From a virus (Duplodnaviria > Heunggongvirae > Uroviricota > Caudoviricetes): DNA of 13,998 nucleotides. Shown here piece after piece: positions 1 through 13,998 of this stretch (position 1 is its first letter; the number at the start of each line of letters is the position of its first letter). The position numbers and the translations under genes are program-made. The stretch covers positions 1 to 13,998 of IMG/VR virus record IMGVR_UViG_2740892233_000016; one strand, 5' to 3'. The notes under the pieces were generated by a model. That model was not told the origin of the DNA. It did not search any database and was given only the letters and a program-made list of their open reading frames with translations.

Positions 1-1242
1 ATGGCGAGAAAAACACACCCATTAACCACAGTGCAGATCAAAGCAGCCAGACCAGCGCAAAAGGAGTACACCCTGCAGGACGGCGGAGGGCTTTTTCTCC
101 TGGTCAAACCGTCTGGATCAAAACTCTGGAGATTTTCCTACTACCGACCATCGGACAAAAAAAGAATATTGCTGAGTTTTGGATCGCTTGAAGATGTTTC
201 CCTGGCTGATGCCAGAAAACGCCGTAGCGAGTACAGGACGTTAATCAGTGCCGGAACTGACCCGCAGGACCACGAGAGGCAAAAAAGAGAGACAGAGGCC
301 CGAAGACAAGGGAACACGTTCGAAAATGTGGCGGCGGCATGGTACCAGGTGAAAATCAGCCAGAATCTGGCCCCCAACACGATTAAAGACATCTGGCGTT
401 CGCTGGATAAATATGTATTCCCGTTCATCGGCAACACGCCAATAGATACCCTCACCGCCCGAAGGTTCGTTGAAGTGCTTACCCCCATCAAGGAGCGCGG
501 CAACCTGGAAACACTCAAGCGGGTTTTACAGCGCGTTAATGAGGTAATGGATTACGCCGCCAACAGTGGGCTGATTGATGCCAATCCGGCTATGAATGTG
601 CGTAAGGCGTTTCCCTCACCTGTAAAAAAACATATGCCAACAATCCGCCCCGAACAGCTGCCCGAGCTTATGCAGGCTTTATCAGTATCGGCAACAGAAC
701 GGCAGACCAGATTACTGATTGAATGGCAGTTACTGACCGTAACCCGTCCCGCCGAAGCGTCATCAACGCGGTGGGATGAAATCAACCTGGACGCGAAGCA
801 ATGGACGATACCTGCCGGACGCATGAAGATGCGCAGGGATCACGTTATCCCGCTTTCCGGTCAGGCTATGGCGGTGCTGGAGGCCATGAAACCAATCAGC
901 CACCACCGCAATTACGTTTTCCCAAGTCTGAAAGACCCACAGCAGCCGATGAACAGCCAGACAGCTAACGCAGCATTGCGGCGTATGGGATTCGCTGGCG
1001 TGCTGGTGTCTCATGGATTACGCGCCATATTCAGCACAGCAGCGAACGAGGAAGGATTCGAGCCGGACGTAATAGAGGCGGCACTTGCCCACGTCGACAC
1101 CAACGAAGTTAGACGGGCATACAACCGGAGCAACTACATAGAAAAACGCATCGTGCTGATGCGCTGGTGGGGCGAATTTGTCGAGGCTGCGGCGACGGGC
1201 GTAACCCTCGCCAGTGGTAAAAGGGGTATCCGAGCCGTGTAG
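1..1242 (+). CDS. int: Tyrosine integrase, P4-like family
   Basis: 413 aa; N-terminus ...LQDGGGLFLLVKPSGSKLWRFSYY... typical of P4-type integrase arm-binding domain; C-terminal catalytic region with ...HGLRAIFSTAA... and ...AHVDTNEVRRAYNRSNY... (catalytic Tyr region). Stop TAG at 1240..1242. Confidence 0.93.
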   Translation: MARKTHPLTTVQIKAARPAQKEYTLQDGGGLFLLVKPSGSKLWRFSYYRPSDKKRILLSFGSLEDVSLADARKRRSEYRTLISAGTDPQDHERQKRETEARRQGNTFENVAAAWYQVKISQNLAPNTIKDIWRSLDKYVFPFIGNTPIDTLTARRFVEVLTPIKERGNLETLKRVLQRVNEVMDYAANSGLIDANPAMNVRKAFPSPVKKHMPTIRPEQLPELMQALSVSATERQTRLLIEWQLLTVTRPAEASSTRWDEINLDAKQWTIPAGRMKMRRDHVIPLSGQAMAVLEAMKPISHHRNYVFPSLKDPQQPMNSQTANAALRRMGFAGVLVSHGLRAIFSTAANEEGFEPDVIEAALAHVDTNEVRRAYNRSNYIEKRIVLMRWWGEFVEAAATGVTLASGKRGIRAV

Positions 1243-2628: not shown

Positions 2629-3189
2629 ATGGTTGCCGTAAATCATATACCACACCTTGTACACACACAAACGGCCTTTGTGTGGCGTTTTCTGGCCCTG
2701 AATATCGGAGAAAAAAACCAGTTGATCGCCAGTGTCGAAAATAGCTATGATTCCCGCGCACCTCATAAAACGGGTGCCGGGATTGGCGTCCTGGGCAAAA
2801 CTGAAGCGCATAACACGCGCCCCGCGTGTTTTTTTGTGCCGCATAGTCACACCTTATCAATGGTGGGCTGTACGGGGGCGGAGCAATCCGCGCCGGTTTC
2901 TTCAGTGTCCGGTTACGCCAACCCTGTACAGTCCGCCACCAGCGAAATTGGCGTTTCCGGTGGCGGTTATCTTAACCACACTGAGGAGGCTGCCAACATG
3001 GCTACTATCCCTACCCTTGTACATTCTCAAACCGCCTTTCTCTGGCGCTTTATCATCTTTGGCGCGTCAGAACATCAAATCATCCACGTAACCGCCTGGA
3101 CGGAACGCGAAGCGCGTAGCCGTTGCCCGTCCGGTTGTGTTGCTGTATTCGCCGCCCGTATTCGTCAGGAGGTGTGCCATGTGCAATAA
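2629..3189 (+). CDS. Early-operon protein with internal tandem repeat of a small domain ending ...FAARIRQEVCHVQ (possibly Icd-like family; unverified)
   Basis: 186 aa from ATG 2629 with strong RBS AGGAG (2619..2623); two internal copies of motif ...LVH(T/S)QTAF(V/L)WRF(L/I)... ; the ORF-track 409-aa ORF is an upstream run-through of this frame. Confidence 0.6.
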   Translation: MVAVNHIPHLVHTQTAFVWRFLALNIGEKNQLIASVENSYDSRAPHKTGAGIGVLGKTEAHNTRPACFFVPHSHTLSMVGCTGAEQSAPVSSVSGYANPVQSATSEIGVSGGGYLNHTEEAANMATIPTLVHSQTAFLWRFIIFGASEHQIIHVTAWTEREARSRCPSGCVAVFAARIRQEVCHVQ

Positions 3190-3400
3190 AACCACACCGG
3201 ACGCAGCAGCCGCCGCGCTCACTACGCTGATGCACGCGCTTATCGATATTGAATGCACTGCAGAGCTTGCGCAGGGAGAAGAACAGAAAGACCGGACACA
3301 GTTCGCCCTGGAATGTATCCGATACATCGCAACGCGGTCGCTGAATGACGCTAAAAATATTCTTGTTGCTGATTGTGAAAATGGGGGGGGTTATGCGTGA
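3179..3400 (+). CDS. Hypothetical protein, N-terminal half of module-1 gene 2 (split relative to module-2 homolog)
   Basis: ATG 3179 overlaps stop of upstream gene (ATGTGCAATAA), RBS AGGAGG; homolog of N-terminal half of 4481..4945; terminated just after a G8 tract (3383..3390). Confidence 0.5.
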   Translation: MCNKTTPDAAAAALTTLMHALIDIECTAELAQGEEQKDRTQFALECIRYIATRSLNDAKNILVADCENGGGYA

Positions 3401-3614
3401 TGATCGTTTTAATTCCCTGAAACAAGAATTTTCCGGCGTTCCTGATGATGCGGCTGATGCGCTTTCGTCAATATCTGAAATTATGCGGGTGGCTTTTTTC
3501 TTTCTTTGCACTGATGAGCACAGAGATACAGGGCTAAATATTCTTGATATTGCCGCTAACTATGCTGATTTCGTGACAGAAGCTGTTTTAAGAAAAACAA
3601 CGGACGGGGATTAA
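3393..3614 (+). CDS. Hypothetical protein, C-terminal half of module-1 gene 2 (MRDDRFNSLKQEFSGVPDD...)
   Basis: Starts at ATG 3393 with the G8 tract acting as Shine-Dalgarno; near-identical at nucleotide level to 4713..4800 of the module-2 fused gene. Confidence 0.5.
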   Translation: MRDDRFNSLKQEFSGVPDDAADALSSISEIMRVAFFFLCTDEHRDTGLNILDIAANYADFVTEAVLRKTTDGD

Positions 3615-3615
3615 T

Positions 3616-3849
3616 ATGCGTGATATTTACCACGAAACAATAGACCGCGCATTTAGTGCCCTTGCTTACGCTGAAGGTATGTACGAAATATTGCGCATAT
3701 GGCTTGAAACACTTGGCGACAATGAACGCGACAAACAAAAATCAAGAATTGCCACGGCATTAATAACGCTTCTTGATCCTGTAATAATGGAACTGCAAGA
3801 AATAGATCTATTGCACGACAGATATAACGAACAGCACACCGGAGAATAA
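3616..3849 (+). CDS. Hypothetical protein (77 aa), module 1
   Basis: MRDIYHETIDRAF...; paralog of 4938..5171 (about 85 percent aa identity); start overlaps the preceding stop (TAATATG). Confidence 0.6.
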   Translation: MRDIYHETIDRAFSALAYAEGMYEILRIWLETLGDNERDKQKSRIATALITLLDPVIMELQEIDLLHDRYNEQHTGE

Positions 3850-3873
3850 AAATAATGAAACTTAAATATTCTG

Positions 3874-3883
3874 NNNNNNNNNN
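3874..3883. other. Run of 10 N (gap or masked bases) at junction between module 1 and module 2
   Basis: Directly seen; truncates a gene start MKLKYS... (ATG 3855) that is the paralog of 5177..5476. Confidence 0.9.
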
Positions 3884-4284: not shown

Positions 4285-4491
4285 ATGAGAAATCATACCA
4301 CACACCCGCAAGGGCGGGACTCGCACAACCTGAATAAATACATCTGGCGTTTTATCGCCCTGAGCACGGCACAACCGCGCGTGATTACCATTGAGGCCAC
4401 CAGCGAACAGGAAGCACGCCAGCAATCTCCGGCTGGCTGCGTGATGGTATTCGCTGCCCGTATTCGTCAGGAGGTGTGCCATGTGCAATAA
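4285..4491 (+). CDS. Small protein ending ...FAARIRQEVCHVQ (single-domain paralog of 2629..3189; possibly Icd-like)
   Basis: 68 aa from ATG 4285 (RBS GAGG); C-terminal 25 aa nearly identical to C-terminus of 2629..3189; the ORF-track 190-aa ORF is an upstream run-through crossing the promoter. Confidence 0.55.
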   Translation: MRNHTTHPQGRDSHNLNKYIWRFIALSTAQPRVITIEATSEQEARQQSPAGCVMVFAARIRQEVCHVQ

Positions 4492-4945
4492 CATCCGTCC
4501 GGACGCAGCCGCCGAAGCCATCATAACGCTAATGCACGCGCTGATTGATATTTCTGTTATCGCAGACATGGCGCATAAGCACGCCACCAGTGAAACAGAA
4601 TATGCCGGGGCTTTCGTTCCTCATTCGCTGGCGGTTATGCAACTTAGTGCGGATATGGCGCTGAATGAGGCCAAAGCCATCCTGATTGCTGATTGTGAAA
4701 ATGGGGGGGTTATGCGTGATGATCGTTTTAATTCCCTGAAACAGGAATTTTCCGGCGTTCCTGATGATGCGGCTGATGCGCTTTCGTCAATGCCAGAACT
4801 TATTAGAGCGGCTTTTTTCTTACTTTCCACGAGAGAATATAAATCAACGGGGCTTGATGTACTGAATATCGCCGCCGATTATGCGGAATATGTGGCAGAG
4901 GCGCGTTATAGAAGAAAATTTCCTGAGGATGTAAGCCATGCGTGA
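4481..4945 (+). CDS. Hypothetical protein (154 aa), module-2 gene 2 (fused form)
   Basis: ATG overlapping upstream stop, RBS AGGAGG; reads through a G7 tract (4703..4709) where module 1 has G8. Confidence 0.6.
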   Translation: MCNNIRPDAAAEAIITLMHALIDISVIADMAHKHATSETEYAGAFVPHSLAVMQLSADMALNEAKAILIADCENGGVMRDDRFNSLKQEFSGVPDDAADALSSMPELIRAAFFLLSTREYKSTGLDVLNIAADYAEYVAEARYRRKFPEDVSHA

Positions 4946-5171
4946 TATTTACCACCAAACAATAGACCGCGCATTTCTTGCACTTTCTCACAGTGAAAAC
5001 ATGCTGGAAATATTGCGCATATGGCTTGAAACACTTGGCGACAATGAACGCGACAAACAAAAATCAAGAATTGTCACGGCATTAATAACGCTTCTTGAGC
5101 CTGTAATAAATGAGTTGCAGGAAATAGAGACATTGCACGACAGATATAACGAACAGCACACCGGAGAATAA
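4938..5171 (+). CDS. Hypothetical protein (77 aa), module 2
   Basis: MRDIYHQTIDRAF...; overlapping start/stop with the upstream gene. Confidence 0.6.
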   Translation: MRDIYHQTIDRAFLALSHSENMLEILRIWLETLGDNERDKQKSRIVTALITLLEPVINELQEIETLHDRYNEQHTGE

Positions 5172-5176
5172 AAATA

Positions 5177-5476
5177 ATGAAACTTAAATATTCTGGCTTA
5201 ACTGCCAGTGGCAACACTCACCCTAAATTTACGCGCGGTGATATTTACCGCGACCAGTACGGCGGCACGGTAATGATTAAGGGCGTGGCGGGACGGTGCG
5301 TAACTTACCGCCGTGAAGGTTACGAATATGATTGCGTGATGCCTGTTTATCAGTTCCGGCGTGATTTTTCTCTGGTACAGACCGCGCCGCATAACGTGCC
5401 CACCAGCAACGCCAGGGCACGGGCAAACATCCAGAAGCTGAAAACCATGATTAACGGATTCAGGGGCAAGAAATGA
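5177..5476 (+). CDS. Hypothetical protein (99 aa), translationally coupled to the rep-like gene
   Basis: Stop overlaps the rep start (ATGA at 5473..5476); the first 6 codons are duplicated at 3855..3873. Confidence 0.55.
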   Translation: MKLKYSGLTASGNTHPKFTRGDIYRDQYGGTVMIKGVAGRCVTYRREGYEYDCVMPVYQFRRDFSLVQTAPHNVPTSNARARANIQKLKTMINGFRGKK

Positions 5477-6873
5477 AAAGCGCACCGAACTTAAAAAAAC
5501 AGCCTTACGACAAGATGACCGAAGTCATTATTTTTGCGGGTAGTGATGCCTGGGCACATGCGAAACAGTGGCAGGAACAGGACGGGCGACTGGCTGGCGA
5601 TAATGTGCCTCCCGTTGTGCTGGCTGATGATCAACTGGATGAACTGGCAGACCTGAGAATCATCGACGAGGGGCGCTATTGTGTCCGGCTGTACAAGGCA
5701 GGCCACATCAGGCCATCAAATATTAATGCCATTGCGCACAAGCTGGCGGCGGCGGGTGTAACTGATGCGAATTATTACCCCGAAGGGATGCACAGCCATA
5801 TGCGGGAGAACTGGCGCGAATACCTGGAACGGGTGCGCGGGAAAGAGCCGGCGGAAGAAAAAAACCACCAGCGAAAAACCACGCTACCGATGAGCGTTGG
5901 ATCTACCGGATACGACACGCAACTGGATTACGTGGTTAAGGGGATTATTCCGGCGGTATCGCTATGCAGCATATACGGGGCTAGCGGGTCCTATAAATCA
6001 TTCCTTGCCGGATCGTGGGCGTGCCATGTTGCCACTGGTCGCCAGTGGGGAGGCCGCAGGGTTGCACATGGTGCGGTTCTCTATGTGGTTGGTGAAGGCG
6101 GTATAGGTGTTCCGCGTCGTGTAAAAGCCTGGGAGGTTGTGCACGATGAGCAGGTGAAAAATCTGTATCTGGTAAACCGCCCCATCTTTCCGGCTGCCCC
6201 GCTTGATGTTGATGAAATGGTTATCGCTGCCCGTCAGGTGGAGCGGGAAACGGGTAAACCTGTACGCATGATTATTCTGGATACGCTGGCGCGTTGCTTT
6301 GGTGGGAATGATGAAAATGATTCCCGTGATATGGGGGCGTTTATCCGTGGTTGTGACGAACTGAAACGACGCACAGGGGCCACGGTGCTGGTGGTTCACC
6401 ATTCCGGCAAGGATGAGACGAAAGGCGCGCGCGGTTCCAGTGCATTTCGTGCTTCGCTGGATGCTGAATACCGGATACGCAGGGAGGACGCAGGAAGCGA
6501 AGCGCTGGTTATCTCATGCACCAAAATGAAGGACGCGGAGGAACTCAAAGAAGCCGCATATGACTTACGCGTGGTGGAGCTTTTTACCGACGCTGACGGT
6601 GAATTAATCACGTCGCTGGTGGTGGTGGATGATCCGCGCCCTCCTGTTGAACTGGAGCGCATCGAGGAGGCAGGGAACAAGACGGAAAACCATACCGCGC
6701 TATGGGGGTGCATCCGTTCACGCACACAGAACGGCGACAAGTGCACGATCCCGCTGTTACGTGATGACATGAAAAAGCTGGGGTATGAAATGAAAAACTT
6801 CCGGCGCTGGCTGTACAAGCTGGAAAAAGATGGGGTTATTCGTATCGATGGGGATGATGTAGCGCCGCTATAA
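5473..6873 (+). CDS. RepA-like AAA ATPase / replicative helicase of the satellite (AAA_25-type)
   Basis: 466 aa; Walker A-like GASGSYKS, Walker B-like ...RMIILDTLARCF..., ...VLVVHHSGKD... motif typical of RepA/DnaB-like RecA-fold helicases; iterons begin at its stop codon. Confidence 0.8.
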   Translation: MKSAPNLKKQPYDKMTEVIIFAGSDAWAHAKQWQEQDGRLAGDNVPPVVLADDQLDELADLRIIDEGRYCVRLYKAGHIRPSNINAIAHKLAAAGVTDANYYPEGMHSHMRENWREYLERVRGKEPAEEKNHQRKTTLPMSVGSTGYDTQLDYVVKGIIPAVSLCSIYGASGSYKSFLAGSWACHVATGRQWGGRRVAHGAVLYVVGEGGIGVPRRVKAWEVVHDEQVKNLYLVNRPIFPAAPLDVDEMVIAARQVERETGKPVRMIILDTLARCFGGNDENDSRDMGAFIRGCDELKRRTGATVLVVHHSGKDETKGARGSSAFRASLDAEYRIRREDAGSEALVISCTKMKDAEELKEAAYDLRVVELFTDADGELITSLVVVDDPRPPVELERIEEAGNKTENHTALWGCIRSRTQNGDKCTIPLLRDDMKKLGYEMKNFRRWLYKLEKDGVIRIDGDDVAPL

Positions 6874-7063
6874 AAGTGAGGAGCAAAAGCGAGGGGGATA
6901 GAAAGAGGGCCAAAATTAGCCCGCTCTCCCTCACTTTTCGACCTGTATACATCCTCAAAAGTGAGGGGTAAAAAAATACTTATGAAACACACACATAGAA
7001 AAACCGAAAATCCCAACTGCGACGAAGTGAGACGCTTGAAAAAGTGAGGCGAAAAAGTGAGAG
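6873..7063. repeat. Iteron array AAAGTGAG(G/A) (putative replication origin)
   Basis: Direct copies at 6873, 6958, 7042, 7055 (plus GAAGTGAGA 7024 and degenerate AAAGCGAGG 6885, AAAGAGGG 6902) and one inverted copy CCTCACTTT 6929..6937; AT-rich stretch 6968..7010 between them. Confidence 0.6.
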
Positions 7064-7073
7064 GTTGCGAGAA

Positions 7074-7293
7074 ATGACCCAAAAACGCAGAGACAGAACA
7101 GAGCCAAAATATAAAGCGTTAGACATGACTGAGCACACCTTAAAGGTGGCAATCAGAACGATAGACCGCCACACGCGGGAAGGATACGCGAAGGAACATC
7201 CCGACCTGATAAGCGCATTCATGACCACGGCGGCGGCAAACTTTGCCACGCTGACAGAACGGGAGATTGCCGAAGCGGAACAGGTAACAACCA
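7074..7293 (+). CDS. Hypothetical protein, 3' end obscured by N run
   Basis: ORF from ATG 7074 (MTQKRRDRTEPKYKALDMTEHTLK...) running into the N run at 7294..7303; true stop unknown. Confidence 0.35.
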
Positions 7294-7303
7294 NNNNNNN
7301 NNN
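7294..7303. other. Run of 10 N (gap or masked bases)
   Basis: Directly seen. Confidence 0.9.
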
Positions 7304-7319
7304 CCGGAGAGGTGGAATT

Positions 7320-7730
7320 ATGACGGCACAGATAGCCGCTTACGGGCGGCTGGTGGACGACCCGCAGGTAAAACAGACCAGCAAGGGCACACCGATGACG
7401 CTGGCGCGTATGGCGGTATCTTTGCCATGCAGCCAGGCACAGGACGGACAGGCGACGTTATGGTTATCGGTCATCGCATTTGGCAAACAGGCCGACTTCC
7501 TGGCTAAACATCAAAAAGGCGATGTTGCCAGCGTATCCGGCACGATGCAGGTAAGCCAGTGGACCGGACAGAACGGAGAAACGCGGCAGGGCTGGCAGGT
7601 TATCGCAGACAGCGTAATCAGTGCCCGCGCGGCACGTCCAGGCGGGAACAGACGCAAAACCACAGGCACACAGGGTAATCAGCCACCAGCGGGAGGCGAT
7701 GACCCTTACGGTGATGATATTTCGTTCTGA
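7320..7730 (+). CDS. ssb: Single-stranded DNA-binding protein
   Basis: 136 aa from ATG 7320 (RBS GGAGAGGTGG); OB-fold pattern aligns with E. coli SSB (..GRLVDDPQVK.. / ..WLSVIAFGKQADFLAKHQKGDVASVSG..QVSQWTGQNGETRQ..), acidic C-terminal tail ...DDPYGDDISF. Confidence 0.85.
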   Translation: MTAQIAAYGRLVDDPQVKQTSKGTPMTLARMAVSLPCSQAQDGQATLWLSVIAFGKQADFLAKHQKGDVASVSGTMQVSQWTGQNGETRQGWQVIADSVISARAARPGGNRRKTTGTQGNQPPAGGDDPYGDDISF

Positions 7731-7740
7731 GGGGGTGACG

Positions 7741-8013
7741 ATGGTACATGACCGCATAGCGGAGGAACTGGAGGCGAAAGGCTTTTACCGGAGGGCGGCG
7801 GCGCGATGGGGTGAAGTCATGCAGCTGGTGGAGACAGACAAGGAACGGCATCACATCACGATGCGACGGCTGGAATGTTCAAGGAAGGCACAGAGGGCAC
7901 CGGAGCCGCCGGATAATTTCGGAGACCTGAAAAAGGCAGTCGATCGCACTTATGCCGAAATGGGTATAGATGGTGCTGGTGATGAAATATGGCGCAATTA
8001 CCAGGACAGCTAA
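7741..8013 (+). CDS. PerC-like transcriptional regulator
   Basis: 90 aa; N-terminus MVHDRIAEELEAKGFYRRAAARW... resembles the PerC-family N-terminal signature (recalled from memory; needs HMM confirmation). Confidence 0.55.
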   Translation: MVHDRIAEELEAKGFYRRAAARWGEVMQLVETDKERHHITMRRLECSRKAQRAPEPPDNFGDLKKAVDRTYAEMGIDGAGDEIWRNYQDS

Positions 8014-8019
8014 TCAAAC

Positions 8020-8043
8020 AGCCGGAGAAATCCGGCTTTTTTT
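8020..8043 (+). terminator. Rho-independent terminator (AGCCGGA-GAAA-TCCGGCT + T7)
   Basis: Perfect 7-bp stem, GAAA loop, T-run. Confidence 0.65.
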
Positions 8044-8139
8044 GCACCAGTTGAAACGGTATGGCGCATTACCGGGTTTTCGTCACGGTCAGGCATAGTT
8101 ACTATCTGAAACAAACAGACACAACAGAGGAAAAAAACA

Positions 8140-8364
8140 ATGCCGATGAAATTTGATGAGATATTAAAACAGCGTGATAAATACCATGCTGACAACATGG
8201 AGACGATGAGCATCAATGATTACCGCGCATTCCTGGAGACGGGCGCACTGATTGAAAAGGATCAGCATGGTTTTGTGAGATGTGCTCTATCCGGTGAAAT
8301 GCTGGCGGTAAATCCTGAACAGATAGATGCATTGATAGAATTTCTGAAAGAGATCAGAGACTGA
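8140..8364 (+). CDS. Hypothetical protein (74 aa)
   Basis: RBS GAGG upstream of ATG; followed by two terminators. Confidence 0.5.
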   Translation: MPMKFDEILKQRDKYHADNMETMSINDYRAFLETGALIEKDQHGFVRCALSGEMLAVNPEQIDALIEFLKEIRD

Positions 8365-8383
8365 GCCAGCACACAGCACACAT

Positions 8384-8406
8384 AGCCGGAGCAATCCGGC
8401 TTTTTT
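8384..8406 (+). terminator. Rho-independent terminator (AGCCGGA-GCAA-TCCGGCT + T6)
   Basis: Near-identical to the hairpins at 8020 and 10658. Confidence 0.65.
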
Positions 8407-8412
8407 GCGCCC

Positions 8413-8454
8413 AAAAAAAGCCCGATAAGGTCAGAGGGTTCTTATCGGGCTTTT
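8413..8454. terminator. Bidirectional terminator-like hairpin (A7 - GCCCGATAAG...CTTATCGGGC - T4)
   Basis: 10-bp perfect stem with 11-nt loop, flanked by A-run and T-run. Confidence 0.5.
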
Positions 8455-8510
8455 GCATATGAGGTTTTTGGATGCACTGGCGTTCGTGATCGGGATAATC
8501 ATTTCATAAT

Positions 8511-8580
8511 TTGCAACATAACTCAATATCATTGCATAAAATGCAATTCTGATTATAATCAGGACTGGATGAACATCCAG
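8511..8580 (+). promoter_or_regulatory. Late (morphogenesis) promoter region: TTGCAT-N16-TATAAT embedded in three perfect palindromes
   Basis: ATTGCATAAAATGCAAT (8531..8547), CTGATTATAATCAG (8549..8562, contains TATAAT), CTGGATGAACATCCAG (8565..8580); the downstream operon starts at 8616. Confidence 0.5.
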
Positions 8581-8615
8581 TTATGATTTTTTAAGTCGAA
8601 GAGGAATTTCTTACT

Positions 8616-8822
8616 ATGGCTGAAGAGAAAAAAGGCGGTGTTTCGGTGTACATAAGCCCCGACATCGTGAAGGCGCTCAAGGAACGCCACCAGCAGAACG
8701 TAAAAGCAGGCATTGCGGCAGGACTTGATCCGCTGGCGATGGTTGAGCCGTCAACAGGCTGGCAGGTCCGCGCCTATTTACGCGCGGCGCTGGGCATGAA
8801 TCAGACGCATGGAGGTGAATAA
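8616..8822 (+). CDS. Hypothetical protein (68 aa), translationally coupled to the capsid gene
   Basis: Stop TAA overlaps capsid ATG (TAATGG); RBS GAGGAA upstream. Confidence 0.5.
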   Translation: MAEEKKGGVSVYISPDIVKALKERHQQNVKAGIAAGLDPLAMVEPSTGWQVRAYLRAALGMNQTHGGE

Positions 8823-9877
8823 TGGCAGGCAAAGCAACGGCACTTAACACTAACCAGCTTTTCGCGTACCTGAATCGCGGGGATATTGCAGAATTTAAAT
8901 TCAGTCCGCTGTTTACCACGCTGTTTTTCCCGAACGTGGCGACCTTCAACACCCAGAACATCATGCTGGACACCCTGGACATTGAAGAGGTTACGATGTC
9001 AGCGTTCTGTTCGCCTATGGTGGGTAGTCAGGTCCAGCGCGATAAAGGGTACGAAACCAGCACGATTAAACCAGGCTACATGAAACCCAAACACGAAATC
9101 GATCCAACAAAAACCATCATGCGCATGGCTGGAGAAGATCCGGCACAGCTTAACGATCCTACCTATCGCCGTATGCGCCTGATTACTGGCAACATGCGCC
9201 GCCAGATAAACGCCATTAAGGCACGCGTGGAATGGCTGGCGGTGAATGCGGTAACGACCGGAAAAAACCTCATTGAGGGCGAAGGCATAGAACGCTATGA
9301 AATCGACTGGAAGATCCCGGAAAGCAATATCATAGAACAGGCTGACGGTAAAAAATGGTCTGAGCTGGATAAAGAAACACACGATCCAATCTATGACATC
9401 GAGCTTTATGCTGATCAGGGCAATTGCCCCGCAAACGTCATGATTATGGGCGCTGAAGTATGGCGCACGTTACGCAGCTTTAAAAAATTCCGCGAACTGT
9501 ACGACCTTTCCCGTGGTTCAGAATCCGCCGCAGAACTGGCCTGTAAAAACCTGGGTGAAGTGGTGAGCTTTAAAGGCTATCTGGGCGATATTGCCCTTGT
9601 CGTCTATTCCGGCAAATACACTGACAGCGACTGCACCGAAAAATATTTCCTTGAGCCTGATTTGCTGGTCCTGGGTAACACCAACAATAAAGGGCTGGTG
9701 GCCTATGGTGCGATTATGGATCAGGAAGCGGTCAGAACGGGCGCAACGCAAAACATGTTTTACCCGAAAAACTGGATTGAGGACGGCGATCCGGCGATTG
9801 AGTACGTGCAGACGCACAGCGCACCGCAGCCGGTACCGGCAGATATTCGCAAATTTGTTACCGTCAAAATTGGTTAA
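8822..9877 (+). CDS. Major capsid protein, lambda gpE-like
   Basis: 351 aa; collinear similarity to lambda gpE: FKFSPLFTTLFF vs FKFDPLFLRLFF; KPGYMKPKHEIDP vs TPGYVKPKHEVNP; EDPAQLNDPTYRRMRLI vs EDPQNLADPAYRRRRII; SFKGYLGDIALVVYSGKY vs SYKGMYGDVAIVVYSGQY; FYPKNWIEDGDPAIEY..HSAP vs RYPKNWVTTGDPAREF..QSAP. Confidence 0.9.
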   Translation: MAGKATALNTNQLFAYLNRGDIAEFKFSPLFTTLFFPNVATFNTQNIMLDTLDIEEVTMSAFCSPMVGSQVQRDKGYETSTIKPGYMKPKHEIDPTKTIMRMAGEDPAQLNDPTYRRMRLITGNMRRQINAIKARVEWLAVNAVTTGKNLIEGEGIERYEIDWKIPESNIIEQADGKKWSELDKETHDPIYDIELYADQGNCPANVMIMGAEVWRTLRSFKKFRELYDLSRGSESAAELACKNLGEVVSFKGYLGDIALVVYSGKYTDSDCTEKYFLEPDLLVLGNTNNKGLVAYGAIMDQEAVRTGATQNMFYPKNWIEDGDPAIEYVQTHSAPQPVPADIRKFVTVKIG

Positions 9878-9889
9878 CGGGGGGATTCT

Positions 9890-10225
9890 ATGGACACTCC
9901 ATACATTGAGTTATTTGCAGGTAGTCAGCAGGTATCCACGACGCTGGTACATTTTGCTGCTGATGCTGGCGTTATTCAGGAATTTACCCCGCTGATGCTG
10001 GCGGAAAATGGCGAGTTTAAGCCGTGGGATGGTCAGGAATCTGGCAAGGCTGTTTATCTGACCTCGTACCCCGTGGACACGTCGACGCAGAAATCAGCAC
10101 AGTGCTACAAGACGGGGATATTCAATATTGCCGCCGTTAACTGGCCTGAGAGCGCCGACACCGACGCGAAAAAATGCGCCGCCTTTGCGGGTTCTGGCGT
10201 ATCCGTTCAGCCGCTGGCGCGATAA
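9890..10225 (+). CDS. Head decoration protein, lambda gpD-like
   Basis: 111 aa; TPLMLAENGEFKPWDG... and ...CYKTGIFNIAAVNWPESADTDAKKCAAFAGSGVSVQ parallel lambda gpD TPLMLDTSSRKLVAWDG... and ...[36 protein letters not shown]. Confidence 0.85.
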   Translation: MDTPYIELFAGSQQVSTTLVHFAADAGVIQEFTPLMLAENGEFKPWDGQESGKAVYLTSYPVDTSTQKSAQCYKTGIFNIAAVNWPESADTDAKKCAAFAGSGVSVQPLAR

Positions 10226-10237
10226 GCAGGGGGAACG

Positions 10238-10651
10238 ATGGCAACGAATGAAAGTATCATGACGCTACCGCTGGCGAGTAAATTTAAAGCCGAAGCGCGG
10301 GCAATGGCTGACAGAGGTTTATCAACCTACGAGGCCGTATATCAACTTAACAGCCTGGAAGAGAAGGACAAGCCGCGCGCTGATGCGATTATGGCGCTTC
10401 ATGAATCTGACGACTATCAGCCGCTGTTACGTGCAATGGCAAACGTGCCTTGTATTGATGTTGATACGGCTAAAAACATCCTGAACATGACCATAGAGCA
10501 GGAACGCCCGAAGGTTGCACCAGAGCTTACCGCAGCCTTTGAAAACTTTATGGACATGCACAGCCCACAAGCCGTATCAGCTGGCATGGCATACGATGGC
10601 AGAAACCCGGGCGATGACGGCGACATCGATCGCATACTGAAAACCATCTGA
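10238..10651 (+). CDS. Hypothetical protein (137 aa) in the capsid module
   Basis: RBS GGGGGAACG; follows gpD-like gene; ends at a terminator; no recognised family. Confidence 0.55.
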   Translation: MATNESIMTLPLASKFKAEARAMADRGLSTYEAVYQLNSLEEKDKPRADAIMALHESDDYQPLLRAMANVPCIDVDTAKNILNMTIEQERPKVAPELTAAFENFMDMHSPQAVSAGMAYDGRNPGDDGDIDRILKTI

Positions 10652-10657
10652 GACAAG

Positions 10658-10679
10658 GCCGGAGAAATCCGGCTTTTTT
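10658..10679 (+). terminator. Rho-independent terminator (GCCGGA-GAAA-TCCGGC + T6)
   Basis: Third copy of the same hairpin sequence. Confidence 0.65.
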
Positions 10680-10703
10680 GCGGGTCCTTTCCGGCATATG
10701 GAC

Positions 10704-10745
10704 CTGTTACGGGGCGGAGACCTCGCGGATTTTCGCTATTTATGA
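10704..10745 (+). other. cos site 1 (lambda-type cosN, variant cohesive-end sequence GGGCGGAGACCT at 10712..10723)
   Basis: CTGTTACG-GGGCGGAGACCT-CGCGGATTTTCGCTATTTATGA matches the lambda cos junction GTTACG-GGGCGGCGACCT-CGCGGGTTTTCGCTATTTATGA with 2 mismatches; lies about 145 bp upstream of the Nu1-like gene, as in lambda. Confidence 0.7.
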
Positions 10746-10818
10746 GCCTTTTCAGGGGGGTGGTGGTGGTTTTGTTGTTTGATCTATCTTTATGAATGAA
10801 AAGGGAAAGATGCAAGCA

Positions 10819-10854
10819 ATACACCAACCTGAAGCAGTAATTAAGTTGGTGTAT
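10819..10854. repeat. Perfect 10-bp inverted repeat ATACACCAAC-N16-GTTGGTGTAT abutting the Nu1-like start codon
   Basis: Directly seen; right arm ends 2 nt before the ATG at 10857. Confidence 0.6.
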
Positions 10855-10856
10855 TA

Positions 10857-11399
10857 ATGAAATCTCATCTGATGAACAAAAAAAACATGGCGAAAAGCTG
10901 CCGTGTAAGTGCGACAGCGTTCGACAAGTGGGGAGTAACTCCCGTTGAGCGTAAAGGCCGTGAGGCGTTTTATGATGTTGCCAGCGTGATAGAAAATAGG
11001 GTTAACAATGCAATTAGCCAGCTTATAAACGACAAAGGCGAGATTGACGATGATGAACTTTTACGAGTCAGGATCAGATTACTGACAGCACAGGCAGAGG
11101 CGCAGGAACTTAAAAACGATCGCGATCGCGGTGACGTGATTGATACTGAGTTTTGCCTGTACGCGCTTTCAAAGCTGGCGAGTCAGATTTCATCAATCAT
11201 GGACATCCTCCCGCTTACTATGCAAAGGAGCTTCCCACAGATTACCCCCGCCATGCTGGACAGGCTTAAAAGGGAAGTGGTTAAAGCCTGTAATGCCAGT
11301 GCCAGAGTTGCCGACAACCTCCCACAGATACTGGCTGATTACTTGAAAGAAACAACCGGAAACGTACCGGAAAAGTTGCTACAGAAGAAAGGCGAGTAA
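10857..11399 (+). CDS. Terminase small subunit homolog, lambda Nu1-like (possible packaging-redirection factor)
   Basis: 180 aa vs lambda Nu1 181 aa; LTAQAEAQELKNDRDRGDVIDTEFCLYALSKLASQISSIMDILPLTMQRSFPQ vs lambda LTRAQADAQELKNARDSAEVVETAFCTFVLSRIAGEIASILDGLPLSVQRRFPE; N-terminal DNA-binding region is similar but more diverged. True start may be the second ATG (10872). Confidence 0.85.
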   Translation: MKSHLMNKKNMAKSCRVSATAFDKWGVTPVERKGREAFYDVASVIENRVNNAISQLINDKGEIDDDELLRVRIRLLTAQAEAQELKNDRDRGDVIDTEFCLYALSKLASQISSIMDILPLTMQRSFPQITPAMLDRLKREVVKACNASARVADNLPQILADYLKETTGNVPEKLLQKKGE

Positions 11400-11489: not shown

Positions 11490-11573
11490 AATATTTTCAT
11501 TGTTAAACAGTCTGTTACAGAGAAGAAGATCGGATCTGACTTTTGCCGGAAAATTCTCATAAACAGATAAAAA

Positions 11574-11596
11574 CCGCGAGGTCGCCGCCCCGTAAC
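11574..11596 (-). other. cos site 2 (exact lambda cosN including cohesive-end sequence GGGCGGCGACCT, minus orientation)
   Basis: + strand CCGCGAGGTCGCCGCCCCGTAAC is the exact reverse complement of lambda GTTACGGGGCGGCGACCTCGCGG; adjacent reverse-strand sequence TTTATGAGAATTTTCCGG matches lambda TTTATGAAAATTTTCCGG. Confidence 0.65.
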
Positions 11597-11654
11597 GGGC
11601 CATAATTCCAGGAAGGACCCGACGACACCAGACTATCAGAGCGATGGGGGCACA

Positions 11655-12537: not shown

Positions 12538-13998
12538 TTATTCATCTTTCGGCGCAGAATGCTGGCGACCAAAAATCACCTCCATCCGCGCACCGCCCAG
12601 CATGCTCTCTCCGGCGACGATTTTACCCTCATATTGCTCGGTGATTTCGCGGGCTACCGCCAGCCCTACACCTTGCCCAGGGCGTAAAGTATCAACCCGT
12701 TGACCACGGTCGAAAATGACCTCTCGCTTGCTTAATGGAATACCGGGGCCATCATCCTCGACCACAATATAGAGATGCTCGTCGGTTTGCCTTGCAGAAA
12801 TTTCGACAAACTCGAGGCAATATTTACAGGCATTATCCAGCACGTTGCCCATCACCTCGACAAAATCGTTCTGCTCACCGACAAAGCTGATCTCTGGCGA
12901 AATATCGAGAGAGATATTGACCCCTTTGCGTTGATACACTTTGTTCAGCGCTGAGGTGAGATTGTCCAGCAGTGGGGCGACCGGATGCAGCTCGCGGCTG
13001 AGCAATGTCCCGCCGCGCATACTGGCACGATGCAGGTAGTAGCCAATTTGCTGTGAAATGCGGCTGATTTGCTCCAGCATTACCGGCTCAGCATCACTGA
13101 CGCTCATCTTTTCACTACGCAGAGAACGCAGCGTACTTTGCAGCACCGCCAGTGGCGTTTTCAGACTATGGGTCAGGTCGGTGAGCGTCGTACGGTATTT
13201 GTCGTAACGTTCGCGTTCACTTTTTAACAATCGGTTCAGGTTTCGTACCAGACTGGTCAGTTCTCGCGTTGTGGCTGGATTGAGCAATTCGCGGTTATGT
13301 TCTTCCAGTTCGCGGACTTCTTTTGCCAGGGCTTCGATGGGGCGTAAACTCCACCAGGCGGCGACCCACAGCAGCGGGATCACTAACAGCAGATTGGCTG
13401 AGAGCACATAGATAAACCAGCTCCAGACCATATAGGAACTTTTTAGCTCCACCGGAATGGTATCCACCACCACAATGGTTAATTTTGGCATCCGCGATGT
13501 TGCCGGGTAGACGTTTACTGCCACCGAGTGGGTCATCTCCGCGTCGTCATCATCTTCCCGCACTTCCTGCAACTGTTGCTGTATCGAATGATCTCCACTC
13601 AGCAAGAGGCTGGTATCGTTAACATCCGCTTCAATTTCATGAAAACCATTCGATTTCAGCCAGTCAGGCTGGATCATCTTCATCAGCCAGGGCACGTCAC
13701 GTTGCGCCCATAAAAGCTGCCCGTTCTCATCATAAATTAGCGTCATGGTGGGGCTTTGCTTGTCGATATTTTCGGGTAACTCGACATGCAACTTATTGTT
13801 TTCCCACTTCGCAAGGGTATAGAACAGATTGCTCTCGCCACGTAACAGCCGAAACGTAGTTTTATCGAAACTGACGCTATAACCGATCAGCGCGACCATT
13901 CCGTAGGCAAGCGAAAGCACCAGTACTACCGCAGCCGTTGCCAACAGAAAACGTACCCGCAGTGAGAGCGGGAAAAAAAGACGCAGTAATTTTTTCAT
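12538..13998 (-). CDS. phoQ: Sensor histidine kinase PhoQ
   Basis: 486 aa; translation matches E. coli PhoQ along its length as recalled ([60 protein letters not shown]... , H-box ...[13 protein letters not shown]..., ATP-binding domain ...DDGPGIP...[12 protein letters not shown]...). Confidence 0.97.

Follow-up and report, generated by a model that had tools for sequence, protein, structure and literature searches.

The prototype of the Gram-negative phage-inducible chromosomal islands (PICIs) is EcCICFT073, which a helper phage induces and which is transferred at high frequency inside phage particles (PMC6092414). The same source describes the PICI origin of replication as lying 3' of the replicase gene and notes PerC alleles in Gram-negative PICIs. 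Among the EcCICFT073 mutants considered here from its Table 1, which do not include one of ssb, transfer is lowered only in those of int, alpA and pri-rep; the same table gives zero transfer for the 042 island in its native strain. A second relative is the Sakai element Sp7 (OI-51, CP-933C; the cf-PICI EcCIEDL933), in which ECs1586, ECs1587 (ssb) and pchE (ECs1588) follow one another. The gene content of OI-51, including a single-stranded DNA-binding protein and PchE, has been described (PMC3378721), and in the O157 strain PA20, ECs1586-ECs1587-pchE were found by RACE to form one mRNA (PMC7369912).

The proteins encoded by such modules also have well-described counterparts. EPEC PerC and EHEC PchA/B/C, PF06069 proteins of ~90 aa encoded on mobile elements, are transcriptional activators of LEE1 (PMC11773190, PMC3378721). 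By contrast, the group 3 homologue PchE modulates host csgD/curli and flhDC/flagella without activating LEE1, and its expression is basal and goes down 3-7 fold upon SOS induction (PMC6265319, PMC7369912). LEE1 is reported to be unaffected by the PICI homologues of EDL933 and CFT073 (Porter 2005, as cited in PMC11773190), and a ~40%-identical PICI PerC represses LEE1 (PMC11773190). For E. coli SSB, the ssb-113 mutation replaces the penultimate Pro by Ser and renders the protein defective for chi, ExoI, RecQ, PriA, Topo III, RecG and Pol V (PMC3159472, PMC3045619). Finally, LexA control of the Gram-positive, staphylococcal SaPIs has been reported (Ubeda 2007, cited in PMC6739421); SaPI operon I is a morphogenesis/packaging operon whose own promoter carries an SOS-box-like operator, apart from helper-dependent early control. 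Here, we compare an ssb-perC locus with these systems.

Results

The ssb and perC genes are parts of a common E. coli phage satellite

The window, i.e. the whole stretch of 13,998 nucleotides analysed here, carries an EcCICFT073/EcCI042-type PICI inserted between roxA and phoQ. Its left part and the module under study comprise:

1-1242, int
1739-1945, AlpA-like HTH protein (weak, sub-threshold Pfam match at E 0.0028; named an HTH regulator by RefSeq)
5473-6873, RepA-type helicase (replicase) gene, with an AAA_25 match
6872..7065, plus strand, replication origin region with iterons AAAAGTGAGG, direct and inverted, immediately 3' of the RepA-type helicase gene (repeat search)
7074..7323, plus strand, 83-aa protein (ECs1586 family, PHROG 1231), function not assigned; first gene of the hyp83-ssb-perC unit
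7320..7730, plus strand, satellite SSB, 136 aa (ATG at 7320, TGA at 7728-7730; C-terminus ...GGDDPYGDDISF)
7741..8013, plus strand, PerC-family protein, 90 aa (Pfam PF06069), PchE orthologue (group 3 PerC homologue)
8020..8044, plus strand, intrinsic terminator T1, AGCCGGAGAAATCCGGCT followed by T7, closing the hyp83-ssb-perC unit
8140..8364, plus strand, 74-aa ORF (ECs1589 family, PHROG 1957, by PHROG match), function not assigned
8384-8401 plus a T run, plus strand, terminator T2
8416-8429 with 8441-8454, bidirectional terminator T3, 14-bp stem

The first-pass annotation had called this element a satellite, and int, the AlpA-like HTH, RepA, the iterons and the roxA/phoQ site identify it as a PICI. 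It conforms to the Gram-negative PICI of the EcCICFT073 type, which encodes an integrase and an AlpA-type regulator, has ori iterons behind its replicase gene, is transcribed unidirectionally to the right, measures ~12-15 kb and occupies an attachment site that prophages do not use. The roxA/phoQ site is common to the window island, EcCICFT073 and Sp7. In the window, the order is replicase, ori iterons, 83-aa protein, SSB, PerC and terminator, and the same gene order is seen in CFT073, Sakai and six further genomes. Masked bases aside, the 042 island is identical to the window over 7044-8460. The coordinates 7320-8013 given in the first-pass annotation are exact, and RefSeq annotates ssb and perC in identical island copies. 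An SSB of this family is encoded by 1543 of 5426 complete E. coli genomes. The two genes are already annotated parts of a common E. coli phage satellite, and the hyp83-ssb-perC module is known both to RefSeq and to the literature.

In Sakai, the three genes are arranged and spaced as in the window; SSB differs at 3 of 136 residues and ends GDGIPF, PerC is 90% identical, and the 74-aa ORF differs at one residue. By contrast, the Sakai ori/promoter region upstream of the module is different, and the Sakai late region, a full HK97-type capsid module, lacks a LexA-like box and is preceded by an unrelated promoter region. EcCICFT073 shares with the window the roxA-phoQ site, the ssb-perC arrangement and a gpE/gpD-type late operon, of which the promoter, with the palindrome described below, is nearly identical. 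It differs in having a primase-type replicase instead of the RepA helicase, an SSB ending GDDIPF, a PerC of 82 aa that is 75% identical, no 74-aa ORF, and a packaging protein, RppA, unrelated to the Nu1-like protein of the window.

The hyp83-ssb-perC unit ends at a terminator

In unmasked copies, the stop codon of the 83-aa gene overlaps the start of ssb as ATGA, and perC starts 10 nt after ssb behind a Shine-Dalgarno sequence. In the window, a run of 10 N (7294-7303) hides the 3' end of the 83-aa gene and stands for 12 real bases, TCAACGTTAAAA in the island copy L001. Because 10 N replace 12 bases, the 83-aa gene is thrown into the SSB frame, giving rise to a spurious 228-aa ORF (7044-7730) in the mechanical ORF list, which we discarded as an artefact. 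A consensus scan upstream of the 83-aa gene detected no sigma-70 promoter. Placing the published pchE transcription start on the window was ruled out because the ori/promoter region is not conserved between island types (alignment A3).

Downstream, the 74-aa ORF behaves as an optional cassette, with the near-identical terminators T1 and T2 on either side. T2 and T3 (8384..8454) shield the late operon from upstream transcription.

The satellite SSB has an OB fold, a short linker and an acidic tip

The first-pass annotation had recognised an OB-fold SSB, and profile searches bear this out. The protein matches Pfam PF00436 over residues 5-99 (60.6 bits with a cut-off of 26, E 1.7e-16), PHROG 44 'single strand DNA binding protein' (E 9.7e-40) and solved SSB structures (1z9f, E 6.4e-11; E. 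coli SSB 1eqq, E 1.5e-6). It consists of an OB fold (residues ~4-100), a short linker rich in Gly, Gln and Pro (~101-126) and the acidic tip DDPYGDDISF. It resembles E. coli SSB in its OB fold, stacking aromatics, disordered Gly/Gln/Pro-rich linker and acidic tip with a final Phe; however, it is only 26% identical, has 136 rather than 178 residues and has a much shorter linker. In the alignment at this level of identity, the stacking aromatics W54, F60 and W88 of E. coli SSB correspond to W48, F54 and W81, while the tetramer-interface residue His55 corresponds to Leu49. Across a family alignment of 20 sequences, W48 and F54 do not vary; an equivalent of W40 is missing from the satellite protein. 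Among true phages we found no close relatives, all matches being below 35% identity, and a scan of genome contigs with the SSB protein alone gave one useful locus, in E. albertii.

The SSB tip is a Pro-to-Ser allele with the substitution of ssb-113

The tip of the SSB had been described in the first-pass annotation as non-canonical. The penultimate Pro has indeed gone; however, the tip is a single-nucleotide allele and not a distinct tail type, the family consensus being DDIPF. The feature in question is:

7722..7724, plus strand, codon 135, TCG (Ser), penultimate residue; sister alleles CCG (Pro) and, rarely, CAG (Gln)

A single CCG-to-TCG change, Pro135Ser, accounts for the difference and leaves the acidic residues, the Ile and the terminal Phe in place. 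The tip alleles are ...GGDDPYGDDIPF, ...DDISF and ...DDIQF. The penultimate residue is Pro in CFT073 and Sakai, and the experimentally mobilised EcCICFT073 ends IPF. For close relatives, 120 cluster representatives were compared: the C-terminus is GDDIPF in 66, GDNIPF in 26 and GDDISF in five; in the IMG/VR loci, codon 135 is CCG in 37, TCG in 16 and CAG in three. About three quarters of the copies in close E. coli relatives keep Pro. Of 5426 complete E. coli genomes, 362 have the TCG context, and at least 230 carry the CCG version of the same 40-mer. Several pathotypes harbour the Ser allele, which is represented by seven distinct DNA alleles and accompanies either type of replicase (RepA or primase) and either type of capsid module (gpE or HK97).

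In the wider subfamily, represented by 83 divergent SSBs with an acidic tip and a hydrophobic last residue, the penultimate residue is Pro in 45 and another residue in 38 (among these Gly 11, Ser 6, Asp 4, Ala 4 and Asn 4). The first-pass annotation had stated that common and functionally equivalent tail variants would refute its reading, and as regards commonness these counts go part of the way. Amino-acid polymorphism affects 4 of the 10 tip codons, 32 of the 100 OB-fold codons and 13 of the 26 linker codons, and we rejected diversifying selection on the tip because polymorphism is not enriched there.

Position 135 matches the residue altered in ssb-113 (P176S), and the substitution is identical (D-D-I-S-F in the window, D-D-D-I-S-F in SSB-113). 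Because the ssb-113 change is known to weaken partner binding of the host SSB, altered partner binding of the ISF tip is plausible by analogy. The analogy may fail quantitatively, since the residues ahead of the tip are DDPYGDD as opposed to MDFDDD in the host protein, and Pro may matter less for the satellite proteins because other penultimate residues are common in the wider subfamily. The SSB described here is satellite-encoded and not essential to the host, and its Ser tip is natural and widespread, while ssb-113 is a laboratory conditional-lethal allele.

The PerC-family protein is a PchE orthologue

The PerC assignment of the first-pass annotation proved correct: the protein is a true family member that matches Pfam PF06069 over profile positions 1-89 of 90 (146.1 bits with a cut-off of 22.6, E 3.9e-43). 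It is identical to O157 Sakai PchE (ECs_1588) at 81 of 90 residues, and the context, after ECs1586-ECs1587(ssb) and before the 74-aa ORF, also supports orthology. The nearest plasmid-borne homologues outside this island type are ~42% identical, and we found no close relatives in true phages, where matches are 42% identical or less. The predicted structure is all-helical with no helix-turn-helix, and PerC, which has no recognisable DNA-binding fold in this model, probably works via protein contacts.

The late promoter is shared by islands with and without perC

Downstream of T3, the window contains a morphogenesis/packaging operon and its promoter:

8532..8559, plus strand, core late promoter TTGCAT-16-TATAAT
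8532-8537, plus strand, late -35 TTGCAT, inside the palindrome TTGCATAAAATGCAA
8554-8559, plus strand, late -10 TATAAT, inside the palindrome TGATTATAATCA
8616..11399, plus strand, morphogenesis/packaging (late) operon
8616-8822, plus strand, 68-aa protein, late operon
8822-9877, plus strand, lambda gpE-type major capsid protein, late operon
9890-10225, plus strand, gpD-type decoration protein, late operon
10238-10651, plus strand, Nu3-like scaffold candidate, 137 aa, late operon
10857-11399, plus strand, Nu1-like small-terminase homologue, late operon

A promoter-like element is present at 8511..8580, where a late promoter had been proposed, with its core at 8532-8559. The region is nearly invariant across nine islands (80-100% identity, alignment A1), and TGATTATAATCA is found in 45 of 47 gpE-type loci. 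These loci were taken from IMG/VR in place of a scan of genome contigs with the capsid protein, which gave no matches. The -35 is weak, with 3 of 6 consensus matches. Weak -35 elements are typical of activator-dependent promoters.

perC lies between the replication and morphogenesis modules, as first proposed, and PerC had been suggested to activate this promoter. This part of the proposal is not supported. perC is missing from the islands L006, L007 and L009 and from eight IMG/VR loci, and all 11 keep the same late promoter. Conversely, in all 27 HK97-type islands a 90-100% identical PerC is encoded upstream of an unrelated HK97-type late region. The gpE-type and HK97-type late-promoter regions share no k-mer of 9 nt or longer, and we rejected a common PerC site on this basis. 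perC is also present where there are no capsid genes to activate: the E. albertii island has ssb-proQ-perC and zero capsid genes, and perC in islands without capsid genes has been reported (PMC11773190). In addition, the published profile of PchE, basal and dropping after SOS induction (PMC6265319, PMC7369912), is at odds with a late activator, and the lack of an HTH in the PerC model also speaks against this role. PerC is probably not the switch for the satellite capsid genes, although in perC-less islands it could be supplied in trans by other elements.

A LexA-box-like palindrome overlaps the late promoter

The late promoter is overlapped by a further element:

8563..8582, no strand assigned, LexA-box-like palindrome GACTGGATGAACATCCAGTT, CTG-N10-CAG, spanning the expected transcription start and beginning 4 nt past the -10

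By sequence, this 20-bp palindrome has the CTG-N10-CAG form of a LexA operator. It has the highest LexA weight-matrix score in the window (18.3), which was equalled in one of 200 shuffles; of the SOS boxes on which the matrix was built, only that of ruvAB was confirmed to lie upstream of its gene in a genome. The motif CTGGAT-N4-ATCCAG occurs only here in the window, with 0 occurrences expected by chance, and its half-sites CTGGAT and ATCCAG recur unchanged in a palindrome that lies 52-67 nt upstream of ruvA in MG1655 and that we take to be the ruvAB SOS box. All 47 gpE-type loci have the late-promoter palindrome at the same position, and CTG-N10-CAG is conserved throughout its 10 sequence variants. 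The identity of the half-sites to those upstream of ruvA suggests LexA-type repression of the late promoter, as in SaPI operon I. Because the palindrome overlaps the promoter, the most likely control of the late operon would be repression lifted by the SOS response. LexA control of SaPIs has been demonstrated, whereas that of the window is a prediction from sequence and concerns an operator of the E. coli CTG-N10-CAG type.

The palindrome also came up as a terminator-like hairpin. Folded as RNA, it is unremarkable (z -1.25), and with a short hairpin and AUGA between stem and T run, we consider an operator more likely than an intrinsic terminator. Between int and alpA in CFT073, another LexA-like site (TACTGTTTTTTTATACACTG) scored high but was discounted, as it has no CAG half-site; in the reporters published in PMC6092414, alpA was not SOS-inducible.

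Discussion

Based on the data reported here, we think it reasonably likely, with some room for doubt, that the satellite SSB coats the single-stranded DNA of the island with a Ser tip that is weakened but tolerated, that PerC is accessory, and that the capsid operon is derepressed by the SOS response. In this model, the SSB would coat the DNA of the replicating island, and its acidic tip would recruit host partner proteins in the way of bacterial SSB tips. The Pro135Ser change most likely weakens the contacts with host ExoI, chi, PriA and RecQ and would leave DNA binding unaffected. The island appears to tolerate the change, as it is carried by 362 complete genomes in seven DNA alleles and with two types of replicase and two types of capsid module. 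PerC would be an accessory regulator that is co-transcribed with ssb and not a dedicated activator of the capsid operon, which would be transcribed from its own promoter and insulated by three terminators.

The alternative that fares best, although we consider it unlikely, is that Ser and Pro are equivalent at the penultimate position, a neutral polymorphism that leaves partner binding unchanged, and that all that counts in this subfamily of short mobile-element SSBs is the acidic residues, the hydrophobic -3 residue and the terminal Phe. The mixture of penultimate residues among the divergent representatives fits this idea, as do the second substitution (Gln) at the same codon, the unremarkable polymorphism of the tip, and the spread and diversification of the Ser allele. 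However, the same host tip readers lose affinity sharply for E. coli SSB with this Pro-to-Ser change (PMC3159472, PMC3045619), and most copies in close E. coli relatives have kept Pro.

We regard as improbable the model of the first-pass annotation, in which an odd tip leads to new partners or to competition with the host SSB and PerC switches on the late promoter at ~8511-8580 after induction. The position of perC directly between the two modules and the poor -35, of a kind frequent in activator-dependent promoters, are compatible with it. It could also draw on the LEE1 activators in the PerC family, and the altered tip residue is indeed of importance for partner binding (PMC3159472). By contrast, the tip is an allele and not a family trait, and the distribution and published expression of perC/pchE speak against the PerC part of this model. 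Moreover, when the post-ori genes of EcCICFT073 were cloned singly, only rppA affected lambda (PMC6739421); we infer from the gene order that the cloned set included ssb and perC.

An adaptive reading, in which Ser and Gln tips uncouple the satellite SSB from host tip-binding proteins, and could thereby hold ExoI or RecQ off satellite DNA or evade defences that sense foreign SSBs with a host-like tip, has in its favour two independent changes at one codon (TCG and CAG), the persistence of the Ser allele across differing replicase and capsid modules, and the finding that a phage SSB-like FDDDIPF protein is needed for efficient activation of the DRT10 defence, the activation threshold of which is set by ExoI (bioRxiv 10.64898/2026.04.29.721553). 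Nevertheless, we hold this to be the slimmest of the possibilities, as the tip has no surplus of amino-acid change, the Ser allele could have hitch-hiked since it goes together with perC and orf74 as a single haplotype block, and Pro is the majority allele and is that of the island with high-frequency transfer described in PMC6092414.

Returning to the model that we favour, a tempting late-activator role for PerC/PchE is removed as unsupported, and an otherwise known module yields two small new leads, namely a natural ssb-113-like tip allele and, as judged from its sequence, a candidate LexA-box-like operator at the capsid promoter. The Ser and Pro SSBs are otherwise nearly identical and represent a ready-made allelic pair for addressing the role of the tip in a mobile element. 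It is also relevant to whether a host-like tip is a disadvantage, as recent evidence has the threshold of a reverse-transcriptase defence set by SSB tips and ExoI.

A bolder proposal, which we view with considerable scepticism, is that the Ser/Gln tip is a selected "stealth" tip and that the capsid operon of gpE-type Gram-negative PICIs is a direct LexA target, convergent with SaPI operon I. If the first part were true, the SSB would guard the replicating DNA of the satellite without recruiting or titrating host ExoI, RecQ and PriA, and satellite DNA would be processed differently or SSB-sensing defences would not be triggered. If the LexA operator is real, it would explain the timing of late-operon expression without a dedicated activator, and Gram-negative and Gram-positive PICIs would have coupled packaging to the SOS response independently.

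An SSB and a PerC family protein encoded by a PICI at roxA/phoQ

The 14-kb window consists of a phage-inducible chromosomal island (PICI) and chromosomal flank at its right end, and the gene order of the island runs left to right from the integrase through the late operon.

Features of the window
1-1242, integrase
1739-1945, AlpA-like HTH protein
between 1945 and 5177, Icd-like and small early genes
5177-5476, DUF4222 protein (RgdR family of PMC3378721)
5473-6873, RepA/AAA_25 helicase
6872-7065, ori iterons
7074-7323, 83-aa protein
7320-7730, SSB
7741-8013, PerC
8020-8044, 8384-8401 and 8416-8454, three terminators
8140-8364, 74-aa ORF between the first and second terminators
8563-8582, LexA-box-like palindrome GACTGGATGAACATCCAGTT, 4 nt after the -10 of the late promoter candidate
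8616-11399, late operon (lambda gpE-type capsid, gpD-type decoration, Nu3-like scaffold candidate, Nu1-like small-terminase homologue)
10857-11399, Nu1-like small-terminase homologue
12538-13998, minus strand, phoQ, right-hand chromosomal flank

The insertion site is the roxA/phoQ interval, which is also occupied by EcCICFT073 in CFT073 and by the prophage-like Sp7/OI-51/CP-933C (cf-PICI EcCIEDL933) in O157 Sakai. Different O157:H7 strains hold different satellites here: Rafaela_II a gpE-type island like that of the window, with an SSB ending in ISF, and Sakai the HK97-type cf-PICI Sp7, with an SSB ending in GDGIPF. An early-gene module is present in two copies (3145-3873 and 4447-5195, ~84-85% identity; ORFs 3345-3614 and 3616-3849 have their counterparts at 4481-4945 and 4938-5171), with Icd-like frames ending in ...VFAARIRQEVCHVQ at both 3189 and 4491. 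The window contains two runs of 10 Ns. The run at 3874-3883 marks the end of its 99.6% identity match to a copy of the island without masking (L001), so that the island is a mosaic on its left side. At 7294-7303, the Ns take the place of 12 bases, which read TCAACGTTAAAA in L001, and shift the frame, so that the 228-aa ORF 7044-7730 of the mechanical ORF list is a false fusion; in copies without masking, the stop of the 83-aa gene overlaps the ssb start as ATGA.

The ssb and perC genes and their family assignments in the first-pass annotation are right and were already known: the coordinates given are correct, the two products match PF00436 (E 1.7e-16) and, over the whole length, PF06069 (E 3.9e-43), and RefSeq labels at exactly these positions read "single-stranded DNA-binding protein" and "PerC family transcriptional regulator". 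The 1.4-kb stretch around ssb-perC has matches in 1695 of 5426 complete E. coli genomes, including O145:H28, O103:H2, O157:H7 and strain 042, with 335 records at ≥99% identity. The SSB (136 aa, C-terminus GGDDPYGDDISF) matches solved SSB structures including E. coli SSB, with which it shares 26% identity and, in the alignment, the DNA-stacking aromatics. Because no close relative was found in 50,697 deposited phage genomes (all <35% identity), the SSB family looks satellite-specific among E. coli mobile elements.

The SSB tip is a one-nucleotide allele

The non-canonical tip noted previously is confirmed, and it departs from the family norm by a single nucleotide. Representatives of 120 clusters of close relatives include 66 with the tip GDDIPF, 26 with GDNIPF and 5 with GDDISF; the SSB of EcCICFT073, whose replication and transfer have been shown by experiment (PMC6092414), has the GDDIPF tip and differs from the window SSB at 3 residues, while the Sakai tip is GDGIPF. 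The tails of 77 complete IMG/VR SSB genes are IPF (58), ISF (16) or IQF (3), and the penultimate codon, where recovered (56/77), is CCG (37), TCG (16) or CAG (3). The last of these, a second substitution at codon 135 giving GDDIQF, is found in three gpE-type islands (L036, L039 and L041). A 40-nt probe with the TCG codon in its middle matches 362/5426 complete genomes and its CCG version at least 230/5426, a lower bound because the sequence flanking the codon varies; the whole SSB family is present in 1543/5426. The Ser allele exists as 7 distinct DNA alleles and occurs with both RepA-type and primase-type replicases and with both gpE-type and HK97-type capsid modules, always together with a 99-100% identical PerC and the 74-aa ORF. 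Thus, the Ser allele is real, common and has travelled between island types.

PerC is not supported as an activator of the late promoter

The window PerC and PchE (ECs_1588) of Sakai share 90% identity as well as their gene neighbours, and PerC alleles are known from Gram-negative PICIs (PMC6092414, PMC11773190). The suggestion that PerC activates the late promoter is not supported, as the same promoter is present in islands lacking perC and perC precedes unrelated late regions. Specifically, the promoter region 8497-8615 hardly varies among nine islands (80-100% overall identity), in three of which (IHE3034, JNE151685 and VTB96933v) tblastn detected no perC, and 8 further perC-less gpE-type islands were found in IMG/VR. 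Conversely, perC lies upstream of the late region in 27/27 HK97-type islands, and this late region shares no k-mers of ≥9 nt with that of the window. EcCIMP1 has PerC and no structural genes (PMC11773190). In an E. albertii island without capsid genes (L012), the order is ssb, ProQ/FinO, perC, the ProQ/FinO-family gene lying at 4462-4998 (PF04352, E 9.6e-25).

According to published work, PchE hardly affects LEE; it is a repressor of csgD and curli, and its over-production increases flagellar expression. ECs1586, ssb and pchE form a single mRNA starting 10 nt upstream of ECs1586, and PchE expression is basal and, once an SOS-inducing antibiotic is given, drops 3-7 fold (PMC6265319, PMC7369912). 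This published pattern is the opposite of that expected from a late activator. Possibly, PerC is supplied in trans to islands that lack the gene, or has a helper-specific role. The AlphaFold model of PerC has five helices (mean pLDDT 81.6, >90 at residues 1-50), contains no helix-turn-helix and has only generic TPR-like structural neighbours, and a sequence search returned no solved relatives; this would fit a mode of action through protein contacts.

The 74-aa ORF downstream of perC is flanked by near-identical terminators (8015-8042 and 8379-8406; 89% over 28 nt). Because EcCICFT073 has one such terminator and lacks the ORF, the ORF appears to be a cassette that was acquired or deleted through terminator-terminator recombination.

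A LexA-like palindrome at the late promoter candidate

With three terminators between perC and the late operon, the latter must have a promoter of its own. TTGCAT (8532-8537) and TATAAT (8554-8559) with a 16-nt spacer form the best candidate, which agrees with the position annotated earlier, and both hexamers are embedded in palindromes. GACTGGATGAACATCCAGTT has the highest LexA-box-like score in the window (18.3, with a matrix of 22 SOS boxes), a score reached by only 1/200 shuffles. Its CTGGAT/ATCCAG half-sites form a motif found once in the window versus 0 expected by chance. In MG1655, the same half-sites make up a palindrome 52-67 nt upstream of ruvA, which we take to be the ruvAB SOS box. 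The distance to the capsid start is fixed in 47/47 gpE-type loci, and CTG-N10-CAG is kept in all 10 variants across these loci. HK97-type late regions contain no comparable LexA-like site (best score 5.4). Based on the score, the shared half-sites, the fixed position and the conserved CTG-N10-CAG, we propose that a LexA-type repressor would bind at 8563-8582 and repress the gpE-type late operon, a prediction for which SaPI operon I offers an analogue.

The second-best site in the window (AGCTGTACAGAAAACCAGTA, 1241-1260, score 16.1, CTG-N10-CAG intact) lies upstream of the early genes, in overlap with the stop codon of the integrase gene, and related imperfect sites are present between int and alpA in CFT073, O103 12009 and Sakai. 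The palindrome TTGCATAAAATGCAA (8532-8546) overlaps the -35, and TTTGCAAC is found 15 nt further upstream (8510-8517). Both are conserved in all aligned islands and could be an operator for some regulator of the island or a helper phage.

Within the late operon, a 137-aa protein encoded after the decoration gene (10238-10651) matches the C-terminal part of the lambda-type head maturation protease (PHROG 53, positions 494-567 of 583, E 6.7e-9), which makes it a Nu3-like scaffold candidate. Together with the gpE-, gpD- and Nu1-like genes, it gives the island a partial lambda head-gene set. RppA of EcCICFT073 has the same position as the Nu1-like homologue, but the two proteins are unrelated. A 77-nt inverted repeat (10681-10756 and 11546-11621, 82% identity) brackets the Nu1-like gene.

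Discussion

The Pro-to-Ser change at the penultimate residue is identical to that of E. coli ssb-113 (P176S). In the host gene, this mutation has a conditionally lethal phenotype; it spares DNA binding and impairs the interactions with ExoI, RecQ, PriA, Topo III, RecG, Pol V and chi (PMC3159472, PMC3045619). Because the substitution is the same, it is reasonable, by analogy, that the tip would alter interactions with host partners, as had been suggested. Three observations temper this reading: the tip still has its acidic residues, the Ile and the terminal Phe; of 83 tips with acidic residues and a hydrophobic last residue among the best 150 representatives of the wider subfamily (50% clustering), only 45 have a penultimate Pro (Gly 11, Ser 6); and the tip does not exceed the rest of the gene in its density of amino-acid polymorphism. 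On the simplest reading, the Ser tip is a polymorphism that is tolerated and probably hypomorphic; a possible but less likely alternative would be its adaptive uncoupling from host enzymes. The tip is thus ssb-113-type and allele-specific, with uncertain consequence. We see two modest leads for the biology of these satellites, i.e. the Pro/Ser allelic pair of a satellite SSB and the putative LexA-like operator on the late promoter.
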